64,000 bases of DNA from a virus. Its lineage: Duplodnaviria > Caudoviricetes. Positions 41,551-60,579 of this stretch are shown here, one piece after another (the stretch's first letter is position 1; each line of letters opens with the position of its first letter). The translations under genes and the position numbers were made by a program. The notes beneath the pieces were generated by a model that saw only the letters and a program-made list of their open reading frames with translations, was not told the DNA's origin and did not search any database. The DNA is taken from positions 224,001 to 288,000 of the IMG/VR virus record IMGVR_UViG_3300037851_000141; one strand, written 5' to 3'.

Positions 41551-41634
41551 GCCCGAATGGTGGAATTGGTAGACGCGAGGGACTCAAAATCCCTTGGCCG
41601 CAAGGTCGTGTGGGTTCGAGTCCCACTTCGGGTA
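41551..41634 (+). tRNA. tRNA-Leu(CAA)
   Basis: GCCCGAA/TTCGGGT acceptor, AGGGA-CTCAAAA-TCCCT anticodon arm, long variable arm, GTGGG-TTCGAGT-CCCAC T-arm, A73; followed by CTA rather than CCA. Confidence 0.95.
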
Positions 41635-41638
41635 CTAT

Positions 41639-41715
41639 GGGCCATTAGCTCAATTGGTTAGAGCATCCGACTCATAATCGGCAGGTTCTAGGTTCAAGTC
41701 CTAGATGGCCCACCA
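41639..41715 (+). tRNA. tRNA-CAU, most likely Ile2 (lysidine type)
   Basis: GGGCCAT/ATGGCCC acceptor, loop CTCATAA, CTAGG-TTCAAGT-CCTAG T-arm, ACCA end; adjacent tilS supports Ile2 over Met. Confidence 0.9.
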
Positions 41716-50851: not shown

Positions 50852-51505
50852 TTATAATCCAGGAGCCGCGTCTGATTTACGGTCATCATAAGGCATAGTG
50901 TAATCTGGACGACTCATTCTATCTCTTTGACCGTCTTCATCATCAGAATCATTCCAACCATTTTCATACGCCCAAGCAAGTATCGGTTCTTTTGGTTTAG
51001 GCCAAGTTTCGCTTGTTCTACGTCTTCCATCAATATAAGCTTTTATTAGTTTATATAATAGAGAATCTTCTGGTATTTTCTTTTCGAAGAAATCTCCAAG
51101 TTGATTATCAGATGGACGGAATTGTTTAGCTTGTGCGTAGAATTTCTTTTCGGTTTCAGATCCAGCACCTAATTGTGGAAGGTTGAGTGCTTCTGTCATG
51201 GCTGCTATTTCTTCTGGAGTTACATCAATCTTTTCATATGAGGCGTCAGGTAAGTTTTCGACCTTACCAAAATCATTAAGGGATTGAATGTATCCTTTAT
51301 CATACGCCATACGTTCTTTTTCATTAGCAGGAGGCATATAGTTTGGATAATCCTGTTGACCCTTTTCTTCCCAATTAGTTTTTGCTGTTGGTTGAATCTG
51401 TTTACGGTGTCTGACTGCTGCTCTTGTTAATCTTCCTTCGCCCATTATAGATTCGTTTAGTTGTTGCCAAGTCTTTTTTAGGTCTTTATATAGTTTGTCG
51501 TCCAT
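50852..51505 (-). CDS. hypothetical protein, candidate internal virion protein
   Basis: Start reassigned to ATG 51505 (AAGGA RBS); TATAAATA at 51526-51533; leader DDKLYKDLKKTWQQLNES. Confidence 0.65.
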   Translation of the reverse strand: MDDKLYKDLKKTWQQLNESIMGEGRLTRAAVRHRKQIQPTAKTNWEEKGQQDYPNYMPPANEKERMAYDKGYIQSLNDFGKVENLPDASYEKIDVTPEEIAAMTEALNLPQLGAGSETEKKFYAQAKQFRPSDNQLGDFFEKKIPEDSLLYKLIKAYIDGRRRTSETWPKPKEPILAWAYENGWNDSDDEDGQRDRMSRPDYTMPYDDRKSDAAPGL

Positions 51506-51545
51506 TTGAGTTATTCCTTTAGACATATTTATATGATTTTTGTTC

Positions 51546-51573
51546 TTGACTCTACATAAATAGCTGATAGAAT
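51546..51573 (+). promoter_or_regulatory. sigma70-like promoter of the interrupted tRNA
   Basis: TTGACT-N16-TAGAAT about 20 nt upstream of the tRNA 5' end. Confidence 0.7.
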
Positions 51574-51592
51574 ATGCGCGTTGAAAAGATAT

Positions 51593-51713
51593 ACCCGTGT
51601 AGCTCAGATGGCAGAGCGAGAGCCTTCTGCGGAGATTATAGGAATATATTGGGTTCGAATCCCAATCTCTGCTCCAAAGCTCTAGGTCGGAGGTTCAAGT
51701 CCTCTCACGGGCG
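51593..51713 (+). tRNA. tRNA-Arg(UCU) interrupted by a 48-nt insertion between anticodon-loop positions 36 and 37
   Basis: 5' part 51593-51628: ACCCGTG, TA, GCTC-AGATGGCA-GAGC, G, AGAGC, CTTCT. 3' part 51677-51713: AA, GCTCT, AGGTC, GGAGG-TTCAAGT-CCTCT, CACGGGC, G. Removing 51629-51676 gives a canonical cloverleaf with loop CU-UCU-AA (1:72 is an A-C mismatch). Confidence 0.85.
51629..51676 (+). ncRNA. nested mini-tRNA (acceptor stem + T-arm + UCCA)
   Basis: GCGGAGA (51629-35) pairs with TCTCTGC (51666-72); T-arm TTGGG-TTCGAAT-CCCAA; 13-nt linker TTATAGGAATATA replaces the D and anticodon arms; ends T-CCA at 51673-76. Confidence 0.8.
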
Positions 51714-51719
51714 CTAACA

Positions 51720-51756
51720 AATAAACCCATCAGCATAACAACTGGTGGGTTTATTT
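51720..51756 (+). terminator. rho-independent terminator
   Basis: AATAAACCCATCAG / CTGGTGGGTTTATT hairpin. Confidence 0.75.
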
Positions 51757-51782
51757 GTTATCAGAAACATATAAATATCCAT

Positions 51783-52736
51783 ATGCCACAAGATGATAAA
51801 GTTTATAATCAATTAAAAGAAACCTGGAAGAACATTATTCAAGAAATGTTTATCCACGGTGATCCAAATAATAAGAATGTTATAGCGTTTAGAGATAGTA
51901 TTTGGTTATTAGCGAATGATATTCCGGCATCACTTGCCAATGAGATATATAAAAAAGTAGGAATTGATATCAAGTATAATGAAGATGCTGATTTTTTGGA
52001 TTTAGCGAATGAAATAATGAATGAAAAGCCGGATGTACTTACAGGGTCTATTAATGATAAAACCTTATTAGTTTATAGTTCAGGATCGTTTACATTAGAT
52101 CCGAAGTCATCTATTCTTATCAAAAAAGTTGTACAGCATCTCAAACTCAAAAAAGTTGATTATCAGGAAATGGAAGATCAATTTACAGTTCCCAAGAAGA
52201 AAATAACTGGTCAAGTTCCAGACATAGCATATCATGGAACGTCTCTCAATTATCTCGATAGCATTTTGAGACACGGATTAGAACCAAGAGGAAGTCAAAG
52301 CAATTACGAACAACAAGGCATTTACCACGATGATAAGATATTTTTCTCAACTAGATTTGGAGAAGCAAGTCATCACGCAGATCATACAGCAGCATTGAAA
52401 CAATCTAAACCTGTTGTTATTGAGTTTAGAATTCCAGATAAAAATCTTATAACTCCAGATTATGACATTGATATCCAAAGTGGTGAAACGTTGTGGTCAG
52501 ATACAAGAGATAGCAAATCGAAACTTACCAATCCAAAGAGTCAAAGCGCAAGTCAAGAGTTTGGAATATACGGTTATCAAGGAAAAATAATACCCCAACA
52601 TTTTAGATATTTTTACATAAACTTAAGTGGGGATGAATATTCAACGCTTAAAAGCTATAAGAGATTTACATACAAACAATTACAAAAAATTATTAACAGA
52701 TATGGTGACTTAGAATCTTATTTGGATTATTATTGA
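51783..52736 (+). CDS. ADP-ribosyltransferase-fold protein (HGT-type), candidate internal virion protein
   Basis: AYHGTS....SILRHGLEP, IFFS, PVVIEFRIP; TATAAATA at 51770-51777; leader DDKVYNQLKETWKNIIQE. Confidence 0.55.
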   Translation: MPQDDKVYNQLKETWKNIIQEMFIHGDPNNKNVIAFRDSIWLLANDIPASLANEIYKKVGIDIKYNEDADFLDLANEIMNEKPDVLTGSINDKTLLVYSSGSFTLDPKSSILIKKVVQHLKLKKVDYQEMEDQFTVPKKKITGQVPDIAYHGTSLNYLDSILRHGLEPRGSQSNYEQQGIYHDDKIFFSTRFGEASHHADHTAALKQSKPVVIEFRIPDKNLITPDYDIDIQSGETLWSDTRDSKSKLTNPKSQSASQEFGIYGYQGKIIPQHFRYFYINLSGDEYSTLKSYKRFTYKQLQKIINRYGDLESYLDYY

Positions 52737-52797
52737 TACTTTAGTTGTTGATTTTAGATTCTGCTTGACTTTTATTTTTTGACTGTATAATGTGGTC

Positions 52798-53763
52798 ATG
52801 AACTTAGAGAATATCGGCTTTTACACTTTATCTGATGACCGGGCTAAGAACTCGTCAGATAAGACTCCATTACATCGGTGTGAACTACTGTTAACTAAAC
52901 GTTGTAATTTTAGATGTCCTTATTGTCGTGGAACTGGCCCTAAGCAAGAGGCATCATTAGAAGAAGCCCAAATGGTTGTTTCTGAGTGGGCTAAACATGG
53001 ATTGAAGAATGTTAGGTTTTCTGGTGGTGAACCTACAGTTTGGCCGCATTTGGTAGAATTGATTAAGCATACCAAGTCATTAGGTGTTGAGCGCATTGCT
53101 ATTTCTTCAAACGGTAGTGCGAGTAAGGAATTATATAAAGAGTTATGTGATTCTGGAGTAAACGATTTTTCTATTTCATTGGATGCTTGTTGTTCCTCTA
53201 CTGGTGATACTATGTCTGGTGTAAAAGGTGCTTGGAATACTGTTGTCGAGAATATTAAGTATCTTTCGACCTTGACATATGTTACAGTAGGTGTCGTTCT
53301 AACTAATAATAACATTGAAGAATTGGGTAAAATCATTGAATTTGCTCATAAACTTGGTGTTGCTGATATTAGAATCATTTCAGCGGCTCAAGTCTCAAAT
53401 GATATAATTCTGAATGTTGATGTGTCTGATGATGTAAAAATGAAGCATCCTATCTTAATGTATCGTTTGAAGAACTTATCTGTTGGAAGAAATGTTCGTG
53501 GATTAAAAGAAACTGACACCCACAAATGTCCTTTGGTATTAGACGATATGGCTGTTATGGATGGAAAACATTATCCTTGTATCATCTATATGCGTGAAGG
53601 TGGAGCCGCTATCGGTGAAGTTGGACCTAATATGCGTCAAGAGCGTTTAGATTGGTTCAATAAGACTGATACTCATAAAAATAAAATATGTAAAAATAAC
53701 TGTTTGGATGTTTGTCAAGATTTCAATAACAAGTGGGAAGAGTTTCGGAAAAATCCTGCTTGA
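52798..53763 (+). CDS. radical SAM enzyme (MoaA/PqqE-like)
   Basis: CNFRCPYC, FSGGEPT, ISSNG, SISLD; C-terminal Cys cluster. Confidence 0.88.
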   Translation: MNLENIGFYTLSDDRAKNSSDKTPLHRCELLLTKRCNFRCPYCRGTGPKQEASLEEAQMVVSEWAKHGLKNVRFSGGEPTVWPHLVELIKHTKSLGVERIAISSNGSASKELYKELCDSGVNDFSISLDACCSSTGDTMSGVKGAWNTVVENIKYLSTLTYVTVGVVLTNNNIEELGKIIEFAHKLGVADIRIISAAQVSNDIILNVDVSDDVKMKHPILMYRLKNLSVGRNVRGLKETDTHKCPLVLDDMAVMDGKHYPCIIYMREGGAAIGEVGPNMRQERLDWFNKTDTHKNKICKNNCLDVCQDFNNKWEEFRKNPA

Positions 53764-54548: not shown

Positions 54549-55607
54549 TTATTCTATCTCTCCACCACCTAAACAAACATCATTAGCCAAGTCATAGAAT
54601 ACCGCATGTTGACCTGGAGCCGCAACTACAGGATCATCAGTTAAGACTTTTACAACAGAATCAGATTTGTATAACTTAGCCTTTGTACAGGTTCCACGAT
54701 AACGAACTTGACAAACGACTTCCATACCATCATAAAAAGGTCCAGGGAACAATTCATTTTTGATAGTAAAGTCATTAGTTGAAATCTTCTCAATAGTATC
54801 AACATATATTACATTATTATTGACATCTACCTTATCAACAAAGAGTGGAATTGGAGTACCGTGTAAGCCGATTCCTTTTCTTTGGCCTTTAGTCTTTCCC
54901 CAAACGCCATTATGTTGCCCAATTACCATATTCTTATATACAATAGGTCCACGCTTTTTCTGTAATCCACCAAAGTCAAATAGGAACTCACTAATATTGC
55001 CACCAGGGACCATACACAGATCGGTAGAGTCGGGTTTAGCGGCAACATGAATCCCGATCTTATTAGCAATCTCCCTAATCTCCATTTTAGTAGAGAATCC
55101 ACCTAAAGGGAAATGAATCTGTGGAATTATATCTTTAGGAATCCGATAGAGGAAGTAAGACTGGTCCTTTTTCAGATCCTTGGCCCTAGTGATAAAGAAC
55201 TGATCATCTATCTCTTTCGTATTAGCATAATGTCCGGTTGCTAAATGAACAGACCTATCACCATTTACAGCTTGGTAGAGGCTATTGATTTTAGTTGTGG
55301 CATTACAGAGGATACAAGGTGATGGAGTTAAGCCATTCTCGTAATCCTTTACCATTGGCTTTACAGTATGGTCCATAAAGGTCTGTTGAGCATCTATGAC
55401 CTTAAATTGGATACCTAAGTCATTGGCAATCTTTGAAGCATCTTGAGTAGCTTTAGCATTACAACAGGATGCCGAATTGATATTTTGATTACAACGCCAA
55501 AGGACAAGATTTACTCCAATGACGTTATATCCATTACTCTTTAGTAGGTGAGCAGATACAGCAGAGTCAACGCCACCAGACAGACCAACAGCCACAGTAA
55601 TAGGCAT
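54549..55607 (-). CDS. mnmA: tRNA-specific 2-thiouridylase
   Basis: AVGLSGGVDSAV, PSPCILCN..TK, LATGHYA, KDQSYFL, KPDSTDLC, TKGQRKG, CQVRYR, AAPGQHAVFY..CLGGG. Confidence 0.93.
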   Translation of the reverse strand: MPITVAVGLSGGVDSAVSAHLLKSNGYNVIGVNLVLWRCNQNINSASCCNAKATQDASKIANDLGIQFKVIDAQQTFMDHTVKPMVKDYENGLTPSPCILCNATTKINSLYQAVNGDRSVHLATGHYANTKEIDDQFFITRAKDLKKDQSYFLYRIPKDIIPQIHFPLGGFSTKMEIREIANKIGIHVAAKPDSTDLCMVPGGNISEFLFDFGGLQKKRGPIVYKNMVIGQHNGVWGKTKGQRKGIGLHGTPIPLFVDKVDVNNNVIYVDTIEKISTNDFTIKNELFPGPFYDGMEVVCQVRYRGTCTKAKLYKSDSVVKVLTDDPVVAAPGQHAVFYDLANDVCLGGGEIE

Positions 55608-59571: not shown

Positions 59572-60579
59572 TCAGAAGTTCTTATCTAGGATGTTTACGA
59601 AGTTCTTGCGAATAAGAGTTTGTGCTTGTTCTCCGATTCGACTCTTAATGGCTTTTTGTTCATCCTTTTCAAGAGTCTCAAAGCCGGGATTCTCTTTGAG
59701 GAAGTCTTTATGAGCATCCTGCATGAGTCCACCAAGCAACTTACCGAAATCCTTACCAGTAATATCACCAATTTTACTGATGACATTCTTGAGACGATTT
59801 TCGGTAATGAATTGTGAGAATGAATCAAGGAGAGCAATAGCACCTTCAGACAACTTAAGTTCCTCTTTAGGTGGCCGAGGATGCTTACTCTCTTTACTCT
59901 TTTCACTCCACTTATCATTCTTATTCTTGAGGATAACACGACTGCCACAACCAAAGAAAAGAGGCTTGACGGGACGAAGTACAACACCCTCGCAGATATT
60001 TGGAGAGATTGGAGGTAAACCCAATTGCTCTGGAACCTTAGAATCGAACTCATTGGGGTACTTCATGGCGTCTTCAAATGAGCCACAGAATAAGGTCTTA
60101 GCATGAAGGAATCCGAATTGAGCGTACAACTTCTCAACAGTCAAGGCATCTAACCATTGACCATCAGCAACGATATCAAATCCATAGAAATAGTTATTTG
60201 GTCCATAGAATACACCCTTTTGTACTTTGGTTACTCCAGGGACTTTAGCGACATTAGGATGATCGTAGGAACCACCGCAAATCTCACCGTAAAGAGTCAT
60301 TTCCTGGCAACCAAGATGCTTATAAAGTGATTCAATCTTATCTTTATGTGATTCAGCAACACGATTTAGACCATTGAAATTCTCGCCAGGAGCTAAGAAA
60401 CAACTCCGCTTTCCAAGAATGATTTGACCATCTGGAAGCCGTTTGATTTGAGCCGAACTGCCATGTACTTTTTCCCCAACAACCCACTGTCCAGCAGAAA
60501 AGCCTAATTGGACAATCTTGTTAATGGTTTCGGTACGGTAAGCGTTTTCAATGTCAGGGAATGAGACGAAGGTAGGCAT
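59572..60579 (-). CDS. RNA ligase, Rnl2 family
   Basis: Motif I EKVHG, motif III YGEICGG, IIIa FYGFDI, IV CEGVVLRP, V ILKNKN..WSE; C-terminal ITENRLKNVISKIG. Confidence 0.9.
   Translation of the reverse strand: MPTFVSFPDIENAYRTETINKIVQLGFSAGQWVVGEKVHGSSAQIKRLPDGQIILGKRSCFLAPGENFNGLNRVAESHKDKIESLYKHLGCQEMTLYGEICGGSYDHPNVAKVPGVTKVQKGVFYGPNNYFYGFDIVADGQWLDALTVEKLYAQFGFLHAKTLFCGSFEDAMKYPNEFDSKVPEQLGLPPISPNICEGVVLRPVKPLFFGCGSRVILKNKNDKWSEKSKESKHPRPPKEELKLSEGAIALLDSFSQFITENRLKNVISKIGDITGKDFGKLLGGLMQDAHKDFLKENPGFETLEKDEQKAIKSRIGEQAQTLIRKNFVNILDKNF

Follow-up and report, generated by a model that had tools for sequence, protein, structure and literature searches.

The stretch of phage DNA analysed here, hereafter the window, comprises 64,000 nucleotides (nt) and corresponds to bases 224001-288000 of a 331,849-bp IMG/VR jumbo-phage record from a freshwater metagenome (92% complete, 35% G+C). 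It carries a tRNA-Arg(UCU) gene whose anticodon loop is interrupted, between U36 and A37, by a 48-nt insert with the shape of a miniature tRNA. The gene, the insert and their flanks are laid out as follows, in window coordinates:

51546-51573 (+): sigma-70-like promoter motif TTGACT-16-TAGAAT with TG ahead of the -10, 10/12 matches; candidate
51593-51713 (+): tRNA-Arg(UCU) gene with anticodon-loop insert, from the Rfam tRNA model and from ARAGORN after excision
51593-51628 (+): 5' exon, with the acceptor 5' strand, D arm, anticodon stem 5' strand and loop nucleotides C32-U36
51629-51635 (+): 5' strand of the acceptor-like stem of the insert, GCGGAGA; candidate RNase P site at 51628/51629
51636-51648 (+): 13-nt linker UUAUAGGAAUAUA, containing the family-conserved UAUAGGAA
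51649-51665 (+): T arm UUGGG-UUCGAAU-CCCAA (51649-53, 51654-60, 51661-65)
51666-51672 (+): 3' strand of the acceptor-like stem, UCUCUGC
51673-51676 (+): single-stranded tail U73-CCA (UCCA); candidate 3' cut at 51676/51677
51677-51713 (+): 3' exon, with A37 A38, anticodon stem 3' strand, variable loop, T arm, acceptor 3' strand and G73
51715-51760 (+): 19-bp hairpin with a U-rich 3' arm, likely transcription terminator (-26.4 kcal/mol, z = -9.0)

The sequence itself, Rfam, and excision followed by ARAGORN all agree with the initial annotation in placing the 48-nt insert at 51629-51676. The Rfam tRNA model RF00005 matched 51593-51713 over its full length with 48.8 bits (threshold 29), with about 51 nt inserted at the anticodon loop. 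ARAGORN, which left the gene uncalled in its default mode (no intron option), called a canonical tRNA-Arg(tct) once 51629-51676 had been removed in silico and the loop thereby restored to CU-UCU-AA. The outer tRNA has a cloverleaf, a 7-nt anticodon loop after excision and a Rfam score above threshold; it starts with an A1.C72 mismatch, and its CCA is not encoded. Folding the entire gene yields both structures together, the outer cloverleaf and the inner minihelix. The two transcription signals described earlier stand in part: the promoter motif is present with its 10/12 matches, but promoter-like sites occur at chance frequency in this AT-rich region (2 found versus 1.9 expected from shuffles), and the terminator is a strong hairpin by its z score, but was not called by a consensus terminator scan because it fails the T-tail/loop rule of the scanner.

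Folded alone, the insert adopts a minihelix as its minimum-free-energy (MFE) structure, with a 7-bp acceptor stem on a 5-bp T arm. It fails as a full tRNA, since the D arm and the anticodon arm are missing, and is tRNA-like only. Its sequence contains the features of an RNase P substrate, namely a 12-bp acceptor/T stack, a T loop, a 3' NCCA and a U at -1; the acceptor/T stack, T loop and NCCA are recognition elements of RNase P and of tRNA 3'-end enzymes. The GG of the linker probably mimics G18 and G19 of a D loop, docking on the T loop. By contrast, the linker hairpin UAUA-GGAA-UAUA suggested earlier had to be abandoned, as it is absent from the MFE fold and its flanking UAUA is not conserved in relatives. 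The proposed Gly and Ala determinants fared better only locally. G3.U70 is the determinant for alanyl-tRNA synthetase, and G1-C72, C2-G71, U73 and G3.U70 are all present in the Arg copy, but as a set they are peculiar to it; a conserved Gly/Ala identity of the minihelix was rejected, since position 3:70 is G.U in 2 of 13 family members and 1:72 and 2:71 vary freely.

The Arg insert has sisters in the same genome. Rfam gave 25 tRNA matches in the 332-kb record, and the four that are over-long all have an anticodon-loop insert:

Gln(UUG), genome 183007-183123: insert of 46 nt at position 34/35, tail ACCA
Thr(UGU), genome 197791-197907: insert of 45 nt at position 35/36, tail AA
Gly(UCC), genome 198848-198953: insert of 35 nt at position 36/37, tail ACCA
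Arg(UCU), window 51593-51713: insert of 48 nt at position 36/37, tail UCCA

In silico excision yielded a canonical tRNA for all four genes. Three of the inserts have a T arm, while the Gly insert lacks a T loop and forms a hairpin of 6 bp plus 5 bp. Using a strict grammar for the minihelix (acceptor stem 7/7 paired, linker of 6-15 nt, T stem 5/5 paired, T loop TTCRANT) on both strands of the 332-kb genome, we obtained three matches, all of them inside tRNA anticodon loops; 20 shuffled genomes gave two matches in total (~0.1 per genome). The uninterrupted tRNA set of the phage contains no Gln, Thr, Gly, Lys, Asp or Arg(UCU) tRNA, which leaves the interrupted genes as its sole source of Gln, Thr, Gly and AGA decoders. 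In long open reading frames (ORFs), AGA accounts for 42% of Arg codons and CAA for 81% of Gln codons. About one-third of the tRNA genes in the genome encode CCA.

The same phage offers an internal contrast, in that it uses a classical group I tRNA intron as well. Its tRNA-Lys(UUU) gene (genome 316550-316852, L038:10550-10852, minus strand, outside the window) carries a 227-nt intron after 36/37 that was assigned to group I by the full-model Rfam Intron_gpI, with 49.1 bits (gathering 50) and E = 1.5e-11. The 48-nt Arg insert, without a catalytic core, remained without a match to Intron_gpI at E values as high as 10, and bulge-helix-bulge geometry is absent from the folds of both the insert and the gene, bearing out the earlier view that it is neither a group I nor a bulge-helix-bulge intron. 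We likewise regard a small self-cleaving or self-splicing ribozyme as an extremely improbable identity for the insert: when 51500-51800 was searched permissively with Rfam, the tRNA model was the only match, to the exclusion of ribozymes and all other families, the insert folds as a plain coaxial helix bearing a T loop, and the true group I intron in the tRNA-Lys gene looks entirely different. What speaks for a ribozyme is that ribozymes of 40-70 nt, such as the theta ribozymes (PMC10879173), are common near the tRNAs of phages.

The boundaries of the inserts could be fixed by comparison with relatives. The nearest relatives of the interrupted Thr and Gly genes are an uninterrupted tRNA-Thr(UGU) and tRNA-Gly(UCC) in another IMG/VR contig, G003, and pairwise alignment with these left a single gap each, corresponding exactly to the 45-nt and 35-nt inserts and thus setting both pairs of boundaries empirically. 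For Gln, the relative is itself interrupted: with slashes marking the junctions, the gene here reads CUU/GAUCGCU...AGUGAUC-ACCA/UGGA and that of G003 reads CUUU/GAUUGUU...AACAGUC-GCCA/GGA. The intron of G003 and of the near-identical contig G004 hence lies one nucleotide further 3' than the one here, while each spans its minihelix from +1 through CCA and restores CUUUGGA when removed. This one-nucleotide shift with the loop restored indicates that the junctions are set by the ends of the intron rather than by a fixed tRNA position, and that the spliced loop is under selection. The two Gln introns are 76% identical, with compensatory stem changes, at an exon identity of 55-59%, a pattern that reads as the reverse of a decaying pseudogene. 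Across the family, insert positions vary (34/35, 35/36, 36/37), and the boundaries follow the +1 of the minihelix and, in the five of seven nested cases where NCCA stands exactly at the 3' junction, the NCCA end as well. Limits running from +1 to CCA, as first described, hold for the Arg copy but are not universal, given a Thr insert without CCA and a tRNA-Leu insert in a further record, G002, with 30 nt 5' of the minihelix.

To place the Arg insert within a wider family, we used the linker word UAUAGGAA, which is common to the three T-arm inserts of the 332-kb genome. Combined with the T loop, it gave a pattern found at 50 IMG/VR loci, 11 of which have perfect or near-perfect acceptor and T stems directly beside it. 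Nested relatives among these are tRNA-Gln(UUG) in G003 and G004 and tRNA-Leu(UAA) in the 344-kb G002 (L127:628-790), whose 80-nt insert consists of a 30-nt 5' segment followed by the family minihelix ending near CCA. A scan for over-long tRNAs added a tRNA-Asn(GUU) in G003 (CUGU/A-AUGGGC...GCUCAU-C-ACCA/UAA) and a tRNA-Arg(UCU) in G002 (L127:15251-15405, G002 250751-250905) with an 82-nt anticodon-loop insert that is not minihelix-like. A search of related phages for such inserts, proposed as a check at the outset, did turn up nested homologues, in Gln, Asn and Leu genes. Within the family, TATAGGAA is nearly invariant across 14 members. A covariance model (R1) built from six members, with the Arg insert excluded, recovered 51629-51676 with 23.6 bits (E about 1e-3), and over the 332-kb genome it gave exactly three matches, namely the three T-arm inserts in anticodon loops. 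Judged by sequence and predicted structure, the Arg insert belongs to a family of minihelix-type tRNA introns.

The pairing of this family covaries. In a model-guided alignment of 13 distinct members, in which the model fit favours structure, standard pairs occupied 96.8% of cells, versus 58.7% after shuffling and 33-49% when partners were slid; changes on both sides were seen in 11 of 12 pairs, and the covariation score was 1.09 versus 0.28. Although the alignment was fitted to a model, the margin is large and the slide control clean. Together, the MFE fold, the family and the covariation uphold the original description of a structured insert with the boundaries of a tRNA module.

These comparisons also bear on whether the locus might be a dead gene, produced by a single insertion event, by recombination that left a scar or by chimeric assembly. 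The initial annotation had named homologous loci with decaying pairing as the mark of a one-off pseudogene; at these loci the pairing instead covaries and the Thr and Gly boundaries are exact. The genome holds four inserts of one design, homologues with compensatory changes occur in independent assemblies, excision restores the loop exactly, and the codons served are heavily used, all of which, along with the promoter-like motif, the strong hairpin and a CCA-adding enzyme encoded by the phage, makes a dead gene very improbable, even though the outer A1.C72 mismatch, the missing CCA and the failure to find a close homologue would suit one. That failure extends over several searches: blastn of the tRNA-Arg unit against 50,697 GenBank phages gave no match; an exon-junction pattern scan of IMG/VR gave 10 matches, which all fall within one protein-coding gene family and are hence chance matches; and two more tRNA-Arg exon patterns returned nothing or unrelated tRNAs with a common T arm. 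Global alignment of the Arg gene with two divergent uninterrupted Arg(UCU) genes gave no usable result, because the T arm of the insert confuses the alignment. Among uninterrupted genes, a phage tRNA-Arg(UCU) in record G005 (L117:1701-1773, minus strand) has the anticodon loop CCUCUAA, with a C replacing the universal U33, and the one relative that was found by way of the Thg1-like protein has six tRNAs, all uninterrupted.

Other IMG/VR copies of the minihelix are free-standing and intergenic, several of them as tandem units within tRNA clusters, and their CCA is mostly missing, with tails reading CACC, CGCC, ACAC, AAAU or UCUA. Elsewhere the pattern was found as free-standing minihelices only, at 5 of 120 loci in metagenomes and 3 of 120 in bacterial genomes. 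Such free-standing homologues in phages and bacteria suggest that the mini-tRNA may have a function of its own. Pairs of them lie ~300 nt apart (L093:1475-1521(-)/1784-1830(-) and L089:6628-6674(-)/6968-7014(-)), with the linker UAUAGG[ACU]AAAUCAG, CACC or CGCC ends, and similar repeat units in phage tRNA clusters. Others follow GTTCTTAAAAA in Flavobacteriaceae genomes and metagenome contigs (L321:6299-6341 (+), L371, L162, L182 and L269:3591-3632), and one free-standing minihelix in an uncultured bacterium ends in ACCA.

One could therefore argue that the mini-tRNA is the selected product, serving for instance as a decoy with a CCA end, as a minihelix that can be charged or as a signal for processing, and that the tRNA gene is only its carrier or landing site, with restoration of the tRNA secondary or absent. 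The occurrence of free-standing homologues with a UAUAGGAA linker in phages, metagenomes and a few bacteria, some of them tandem in tRNA clusters, favours this argument, as do the greater conservation of the Gln intron than of its exons between two phages and the G3.U70 of the Arg copy. We nevertheless consider it improbable. The free-standing copies mostly lack CCA and G3.U70 is not conserved, while excision leaves the interrupted genes with perfect cloverleaves and loops of exactly 7 nt, and these genes are the sole source of four heavily used decoders; moreover, the Gln intron has shifted by one nucleotide without altering the spliced loop, a sign that selection acts on the spliced tRNA. 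The insert is likely to be a real intron, removed to give a working tRNA-Arg. Functions of the insert as a timed switch, as a protection against nucleases or as a decoy are conjecture.

We next consider how such an intron could be removed. Bacterial RNase P cleaves minihelices of this kind at +1, leaving a 3'-OH and a 5'-phosphate, and T4 Rnl1 and Rnl2 seal 3'-OH/5'-phosphate breaks. McClain, Guerrier-Takada and Altman reportedly observed in 1987 that RNase P cleaves acceptor/T-arm minihelices with a 3' NCCA. We propose that host tRNA end-processing enzymes would treat the intron as a tRNA. RNase P would cut 5' of G+1, between 51628 and 51629, leaving U36 with a 3'-OH, and an RNase Z/BN-type or RNase E-type endonuclease would cut after CCA at 51676/51677, leaving A37 with a 5'-phosphate; the two tRNA halves would be kept together by the tRNA body, and a phage ligase of the Rnl1 or Rnl2 type would then seal the nick in the anticodon loop. 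Every enzymatic step is one that we infer from sequence, and we consider the full pathway of RNase P, CCA-end endonuclease and phage ligase to be the most likely mechanism, though about evenly balanced between right and wrong. It is chemically coherent, and it fits the insert family, the covariation, the +1/NCCA boundaries and the distribution of ligases. The least secure step is the 3' cut. Endonucleolytic cuts exactly after an encoded CCA are made by T. maritima RNase Z and, on some tRNAs, by E. coli RNase E (PMC7479834). Both enzymes leave a downstream 5'-phosphate.

Several points weigh against the pathway as proposed. The tail of the Thr insert is AA and not NCCA, so that the 3' cut cannot strictly need CCA, and the T loop is missing from the Gly insert. 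The tRNA-Leu of G002, with 30 nt 5' of its minihelix, and the tRNA-Arg of G002, with its 82-nt insert of another shape, imply that not all 5' junctions of related phages can be defined by RNase P acting at the minihelix +1. Many bacteria have an RNase Z that is blocked by CCA and mature tRNA 3' ends with exonucleases, a process that would destroy the 3' exon. The phage encodes a P-loop kinase and an Rnl1-type ligase, as would be expected if splicing passed through cyclic-phosphate ends. For the Arg gene itself, the searches made gave no close homologue with or without intron. Among sequencing runs, none of RNA was found to contain this DNA, and contigs of three runs yielded nothing over the tRNA.

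The phage itself encodes two ligases that could act in the last step:

window 59572-60579 (-): Rnl2-family RNA ligase, candidate sealing enzyme, from Pfam and phrog
genome 301931-303142 (-), outside the window: Rnl1-type RNA ligase, candidate sealing enzyme

The first had been called an Rnl2 in the initial annotation, and Pfam confirms this with matches to RNA_ligase (PF09414, 1.3e-20) and T4_Rnl2_C (PF18043, 3.9e-20), next to phrog_548 (4.6e-69). By its domains it is an Rnl2 RNA ligase, with a nucleotidyltransferase and an Rnl2-specific C-terminal domain. With the Rnl1-type ligase also encoded, it is one of two candidates for the sealing enzyme, and by analogy with T4 the Rnl1-type enzyme may be the better candidate for a break in the anticodon loop. 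We surveyed ligases in six records, a tiny sample in which G003 and G004 are not independent:

G000: nested minihelix copies; Rnl1-type and Rnl2-type ligases
G003 and G004: nested minihelix copies; Rnl1-type and Rnl2-type ligases
G002: nested minihelix copies; PHA02142-OB and a sub-threshold RNA_ligase ORF
G005 and G006: free-standing copies only; no RNA ligase found, in records that are incomplete

RNA ligase genes are thus present in every record with nested copies. No RtcB, no EndA-type splicing endonuclease (PF01974) and no RNase Z-like metallo-beta-lactamase was found in the six phage records, and this lack of a phage-encoded excising nuclease points to nucleases of the host.

A different route to excision would employ a dedicated endonuclease, of the phage or of its host, that reads the junction of helix and tail and leaves a 2',3'-cyclic phosphate and a 5'-OH, to be healed by a kinase/phosphatase and sealed by Rnl1, comparable to T4 Pnkp/Rnl1. 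Such a route would draw on the encoded Rnl1-type ligase and on an AAA_33 P-loop kinase that the 332-kb genome also encodes, and many nearby ORFs have no assigned function; the Thr insert without CCA, the Gly insert without a T loop and the extra 5' sequence in G002 strain a rule based on RNase P and RNase Z. We judge it rather unlikely all the same, because no EndA, RtcB or RNase Z-like fold was found in the six records, no phosphatase domain was seen beside the kinase, and the near-invariant T loop, GG linker and NCCA tail, which are RNase P/Z elements, would be left unexplained.

Further genes for tRNA and RNA metabolism accompany the interrupted tRNAs. The phage encodes a CCA-adding enzyme, and its RNA toolkit comprises a Thg1-like 3'-5' polymerase (inside a tRNA cluster), Ro60 (TROVE plus vWA), this CCA-adding/poly(A) polymerase-family enzyme, an MnmA-like tRNA 2-thiouridylase and radical SAM enzymes. 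The toolkit ORFs are located at:

L036:6296-7102
L037:2950-4695
L037:6639-7979
window 54549-55607 (-)
window 52792-53763

Just 3' of the tRNA-Arg unit, gene 51783-52736 (+) encodes a protein with weak similarity to the ADP-ribosyltransferase fold and weak PARP, Tpt1/KptA and DarT-like matches. We considered it as a Tpt1 splicing 2'-phosphotransferase and rejected this assignment as too weak (Pfam E about 1e-3; PDB Tpt1 E = 0.1, with an H-G-T motif); a search for relatives of this downstream protein found none. Elsewhere, an uninterrupted tRNA-Leu(CAA) and tRNA-Met(CAU) lie 4 nt apart at window 41551-41715 (+), the latter with an encoded CCA, and a tRNA-like gene at genome 183910-183990 (L036:13910-13990; 34.7 bits in Rfam) has an encoded ACCA and a 13-nt anticodon loop, UUUUCUUAGAAUU. 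TnpB-like ORFs (Cas12f1-like TNB, OrfB_IS605) at L036:11346-12956 (+) and L037:13027-14343 (-) lie near the interrupted tRNA-Gln and tRNA-Gly genes, their 3' ends being 50 nt and 73 nt away, respectively. As mobilizers of the Gln and Gly introns these genes were rejected, since the inserts are far too small and have no IS200/605 ends.

According to the textbook view, the tRNA introns of bacteria and phages are self-splicing group I introns, and protein-dependent tRNA splicing belongs to archaea and eukaryotes. If the proposed pathway is true, a new splicing pathway would have been assembled wholly from known enzymes, and phage RNA ligases would gain a housekeeping role besides the repair of anticodon-nuclease damage. 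The maturation of the phage's most used decoders would depend on the phage ligase, each splicing event would free a CCA-ended mini-tRNA, and an explanation would be at hand for the 'enigmatic' introns of Lak megaphages discussed below. On the practical side, standard tRNA finders would need changing: ARAGORN and bacterial-mode scans miss or mislabel such genes, which at present biases analyses of codon supply and the tRNA repertoires listed for phages. For reconstitution in vitro, the minimal 35-48-nt form would be a convenient substrate.

When set beside known systems, the minihelix introns share parts with several of them. Group I introns also occur in the anticodon loop of bacterial-type tRNAs, but they are self-splicing, ~200 nt or longer and built around a P1-P9 catalytic core, whereas the insert has 48 nt. 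Bulge-helix-bulge introns of archaea and eukaryotes are, like it, short and located in the anticodon loop, and they are spliced by proteins, an RNA ligase joining the halves that the tRNA body keeps together. They differ in that a 7-bp helix starts directly at the 5' junction of the insert and a 4-nt single strand precedes its 3' junction, and in that the expected ends of the insert are 3'-OH/5'-phosphate rather than cyclic phosphate/5'-OH. Both bulge-helix-bulge and group I introns occupy fixed positions, whereas those of the minihelix introns are variable. An acceptor stem stacked on a T arm and followed by a 3' NCCA or discriminator is likewise found in RNase P model substrates, in plant mitochondrial t-elements and in mascRNA, which are recognised by RNase P and RNase Z and yield 3'-OH/5'-phosphate ends. 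Unlike the insert, t-elements and mascRNA punctuate mRNAs or long non-coding RNAs whose flanks are not rejoined, whereas the flanks of the insert are tRNA halves that need ligation. In the tRNA repair of T4 (PrrC, then Pnkp and Rnl1), a phage ligase also reseals an anticodon-loop break, but it repairs the damage done by a host defence nuclease, while here the break would be a programmed step of maturation.

The closest likeness, one of architecture, is with the Lak megaphages, whose tRNAs were described by Devoto et al. in 2019 (Nat Microbiol, PMC6784885) as carrying 'enigmatic', highly conserved introns. The intron of the Lak tRNA-Thr(TGT) 'itself may encode a tRNA', and the 3' end of the Tyr intron in Table S6 of that paper has a TTGGTTCGAATCCAA T arm beside an acceptor-like pairing. 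The authors put forward no mechanism (PMC6784885), and full-text literature searches turned up none since. The initial annotation knew of no described element of this kind; the insert is not unique, as these published introns, the four inserts in the genome and their relatives elsewhere show. Lak introns resemble the present ones in interrupting anticodon loops, including those of Thr(TGT) and Gly(TCC), and in their tRNA-like fold, and differ in being 76-93 nt long, in carrying additional sequence ahead of the tRNA-like part on its 5' side, and in the phages that harbour them, which are gut megaphages that infect Prevotella and use an alternative genetic code. The freshwater 332-kb phage has minimal introns of 35-48 nt, running from minihelix +1 to NCCA, at positions from 34/35 to 36/37. 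Tentatively, and at somewhat less than even confidence, we suggest that the inserts represent a further mechanistic class of tRNA intron, consisting of a miniature tRNA that would be excised by end-processing enzymes and whose flanks would be joined by a viral ligase. Overall, the element represents, in minimal form, a class of phage tRNA introns that has scarcely been described and whose mechanism is unexplained.

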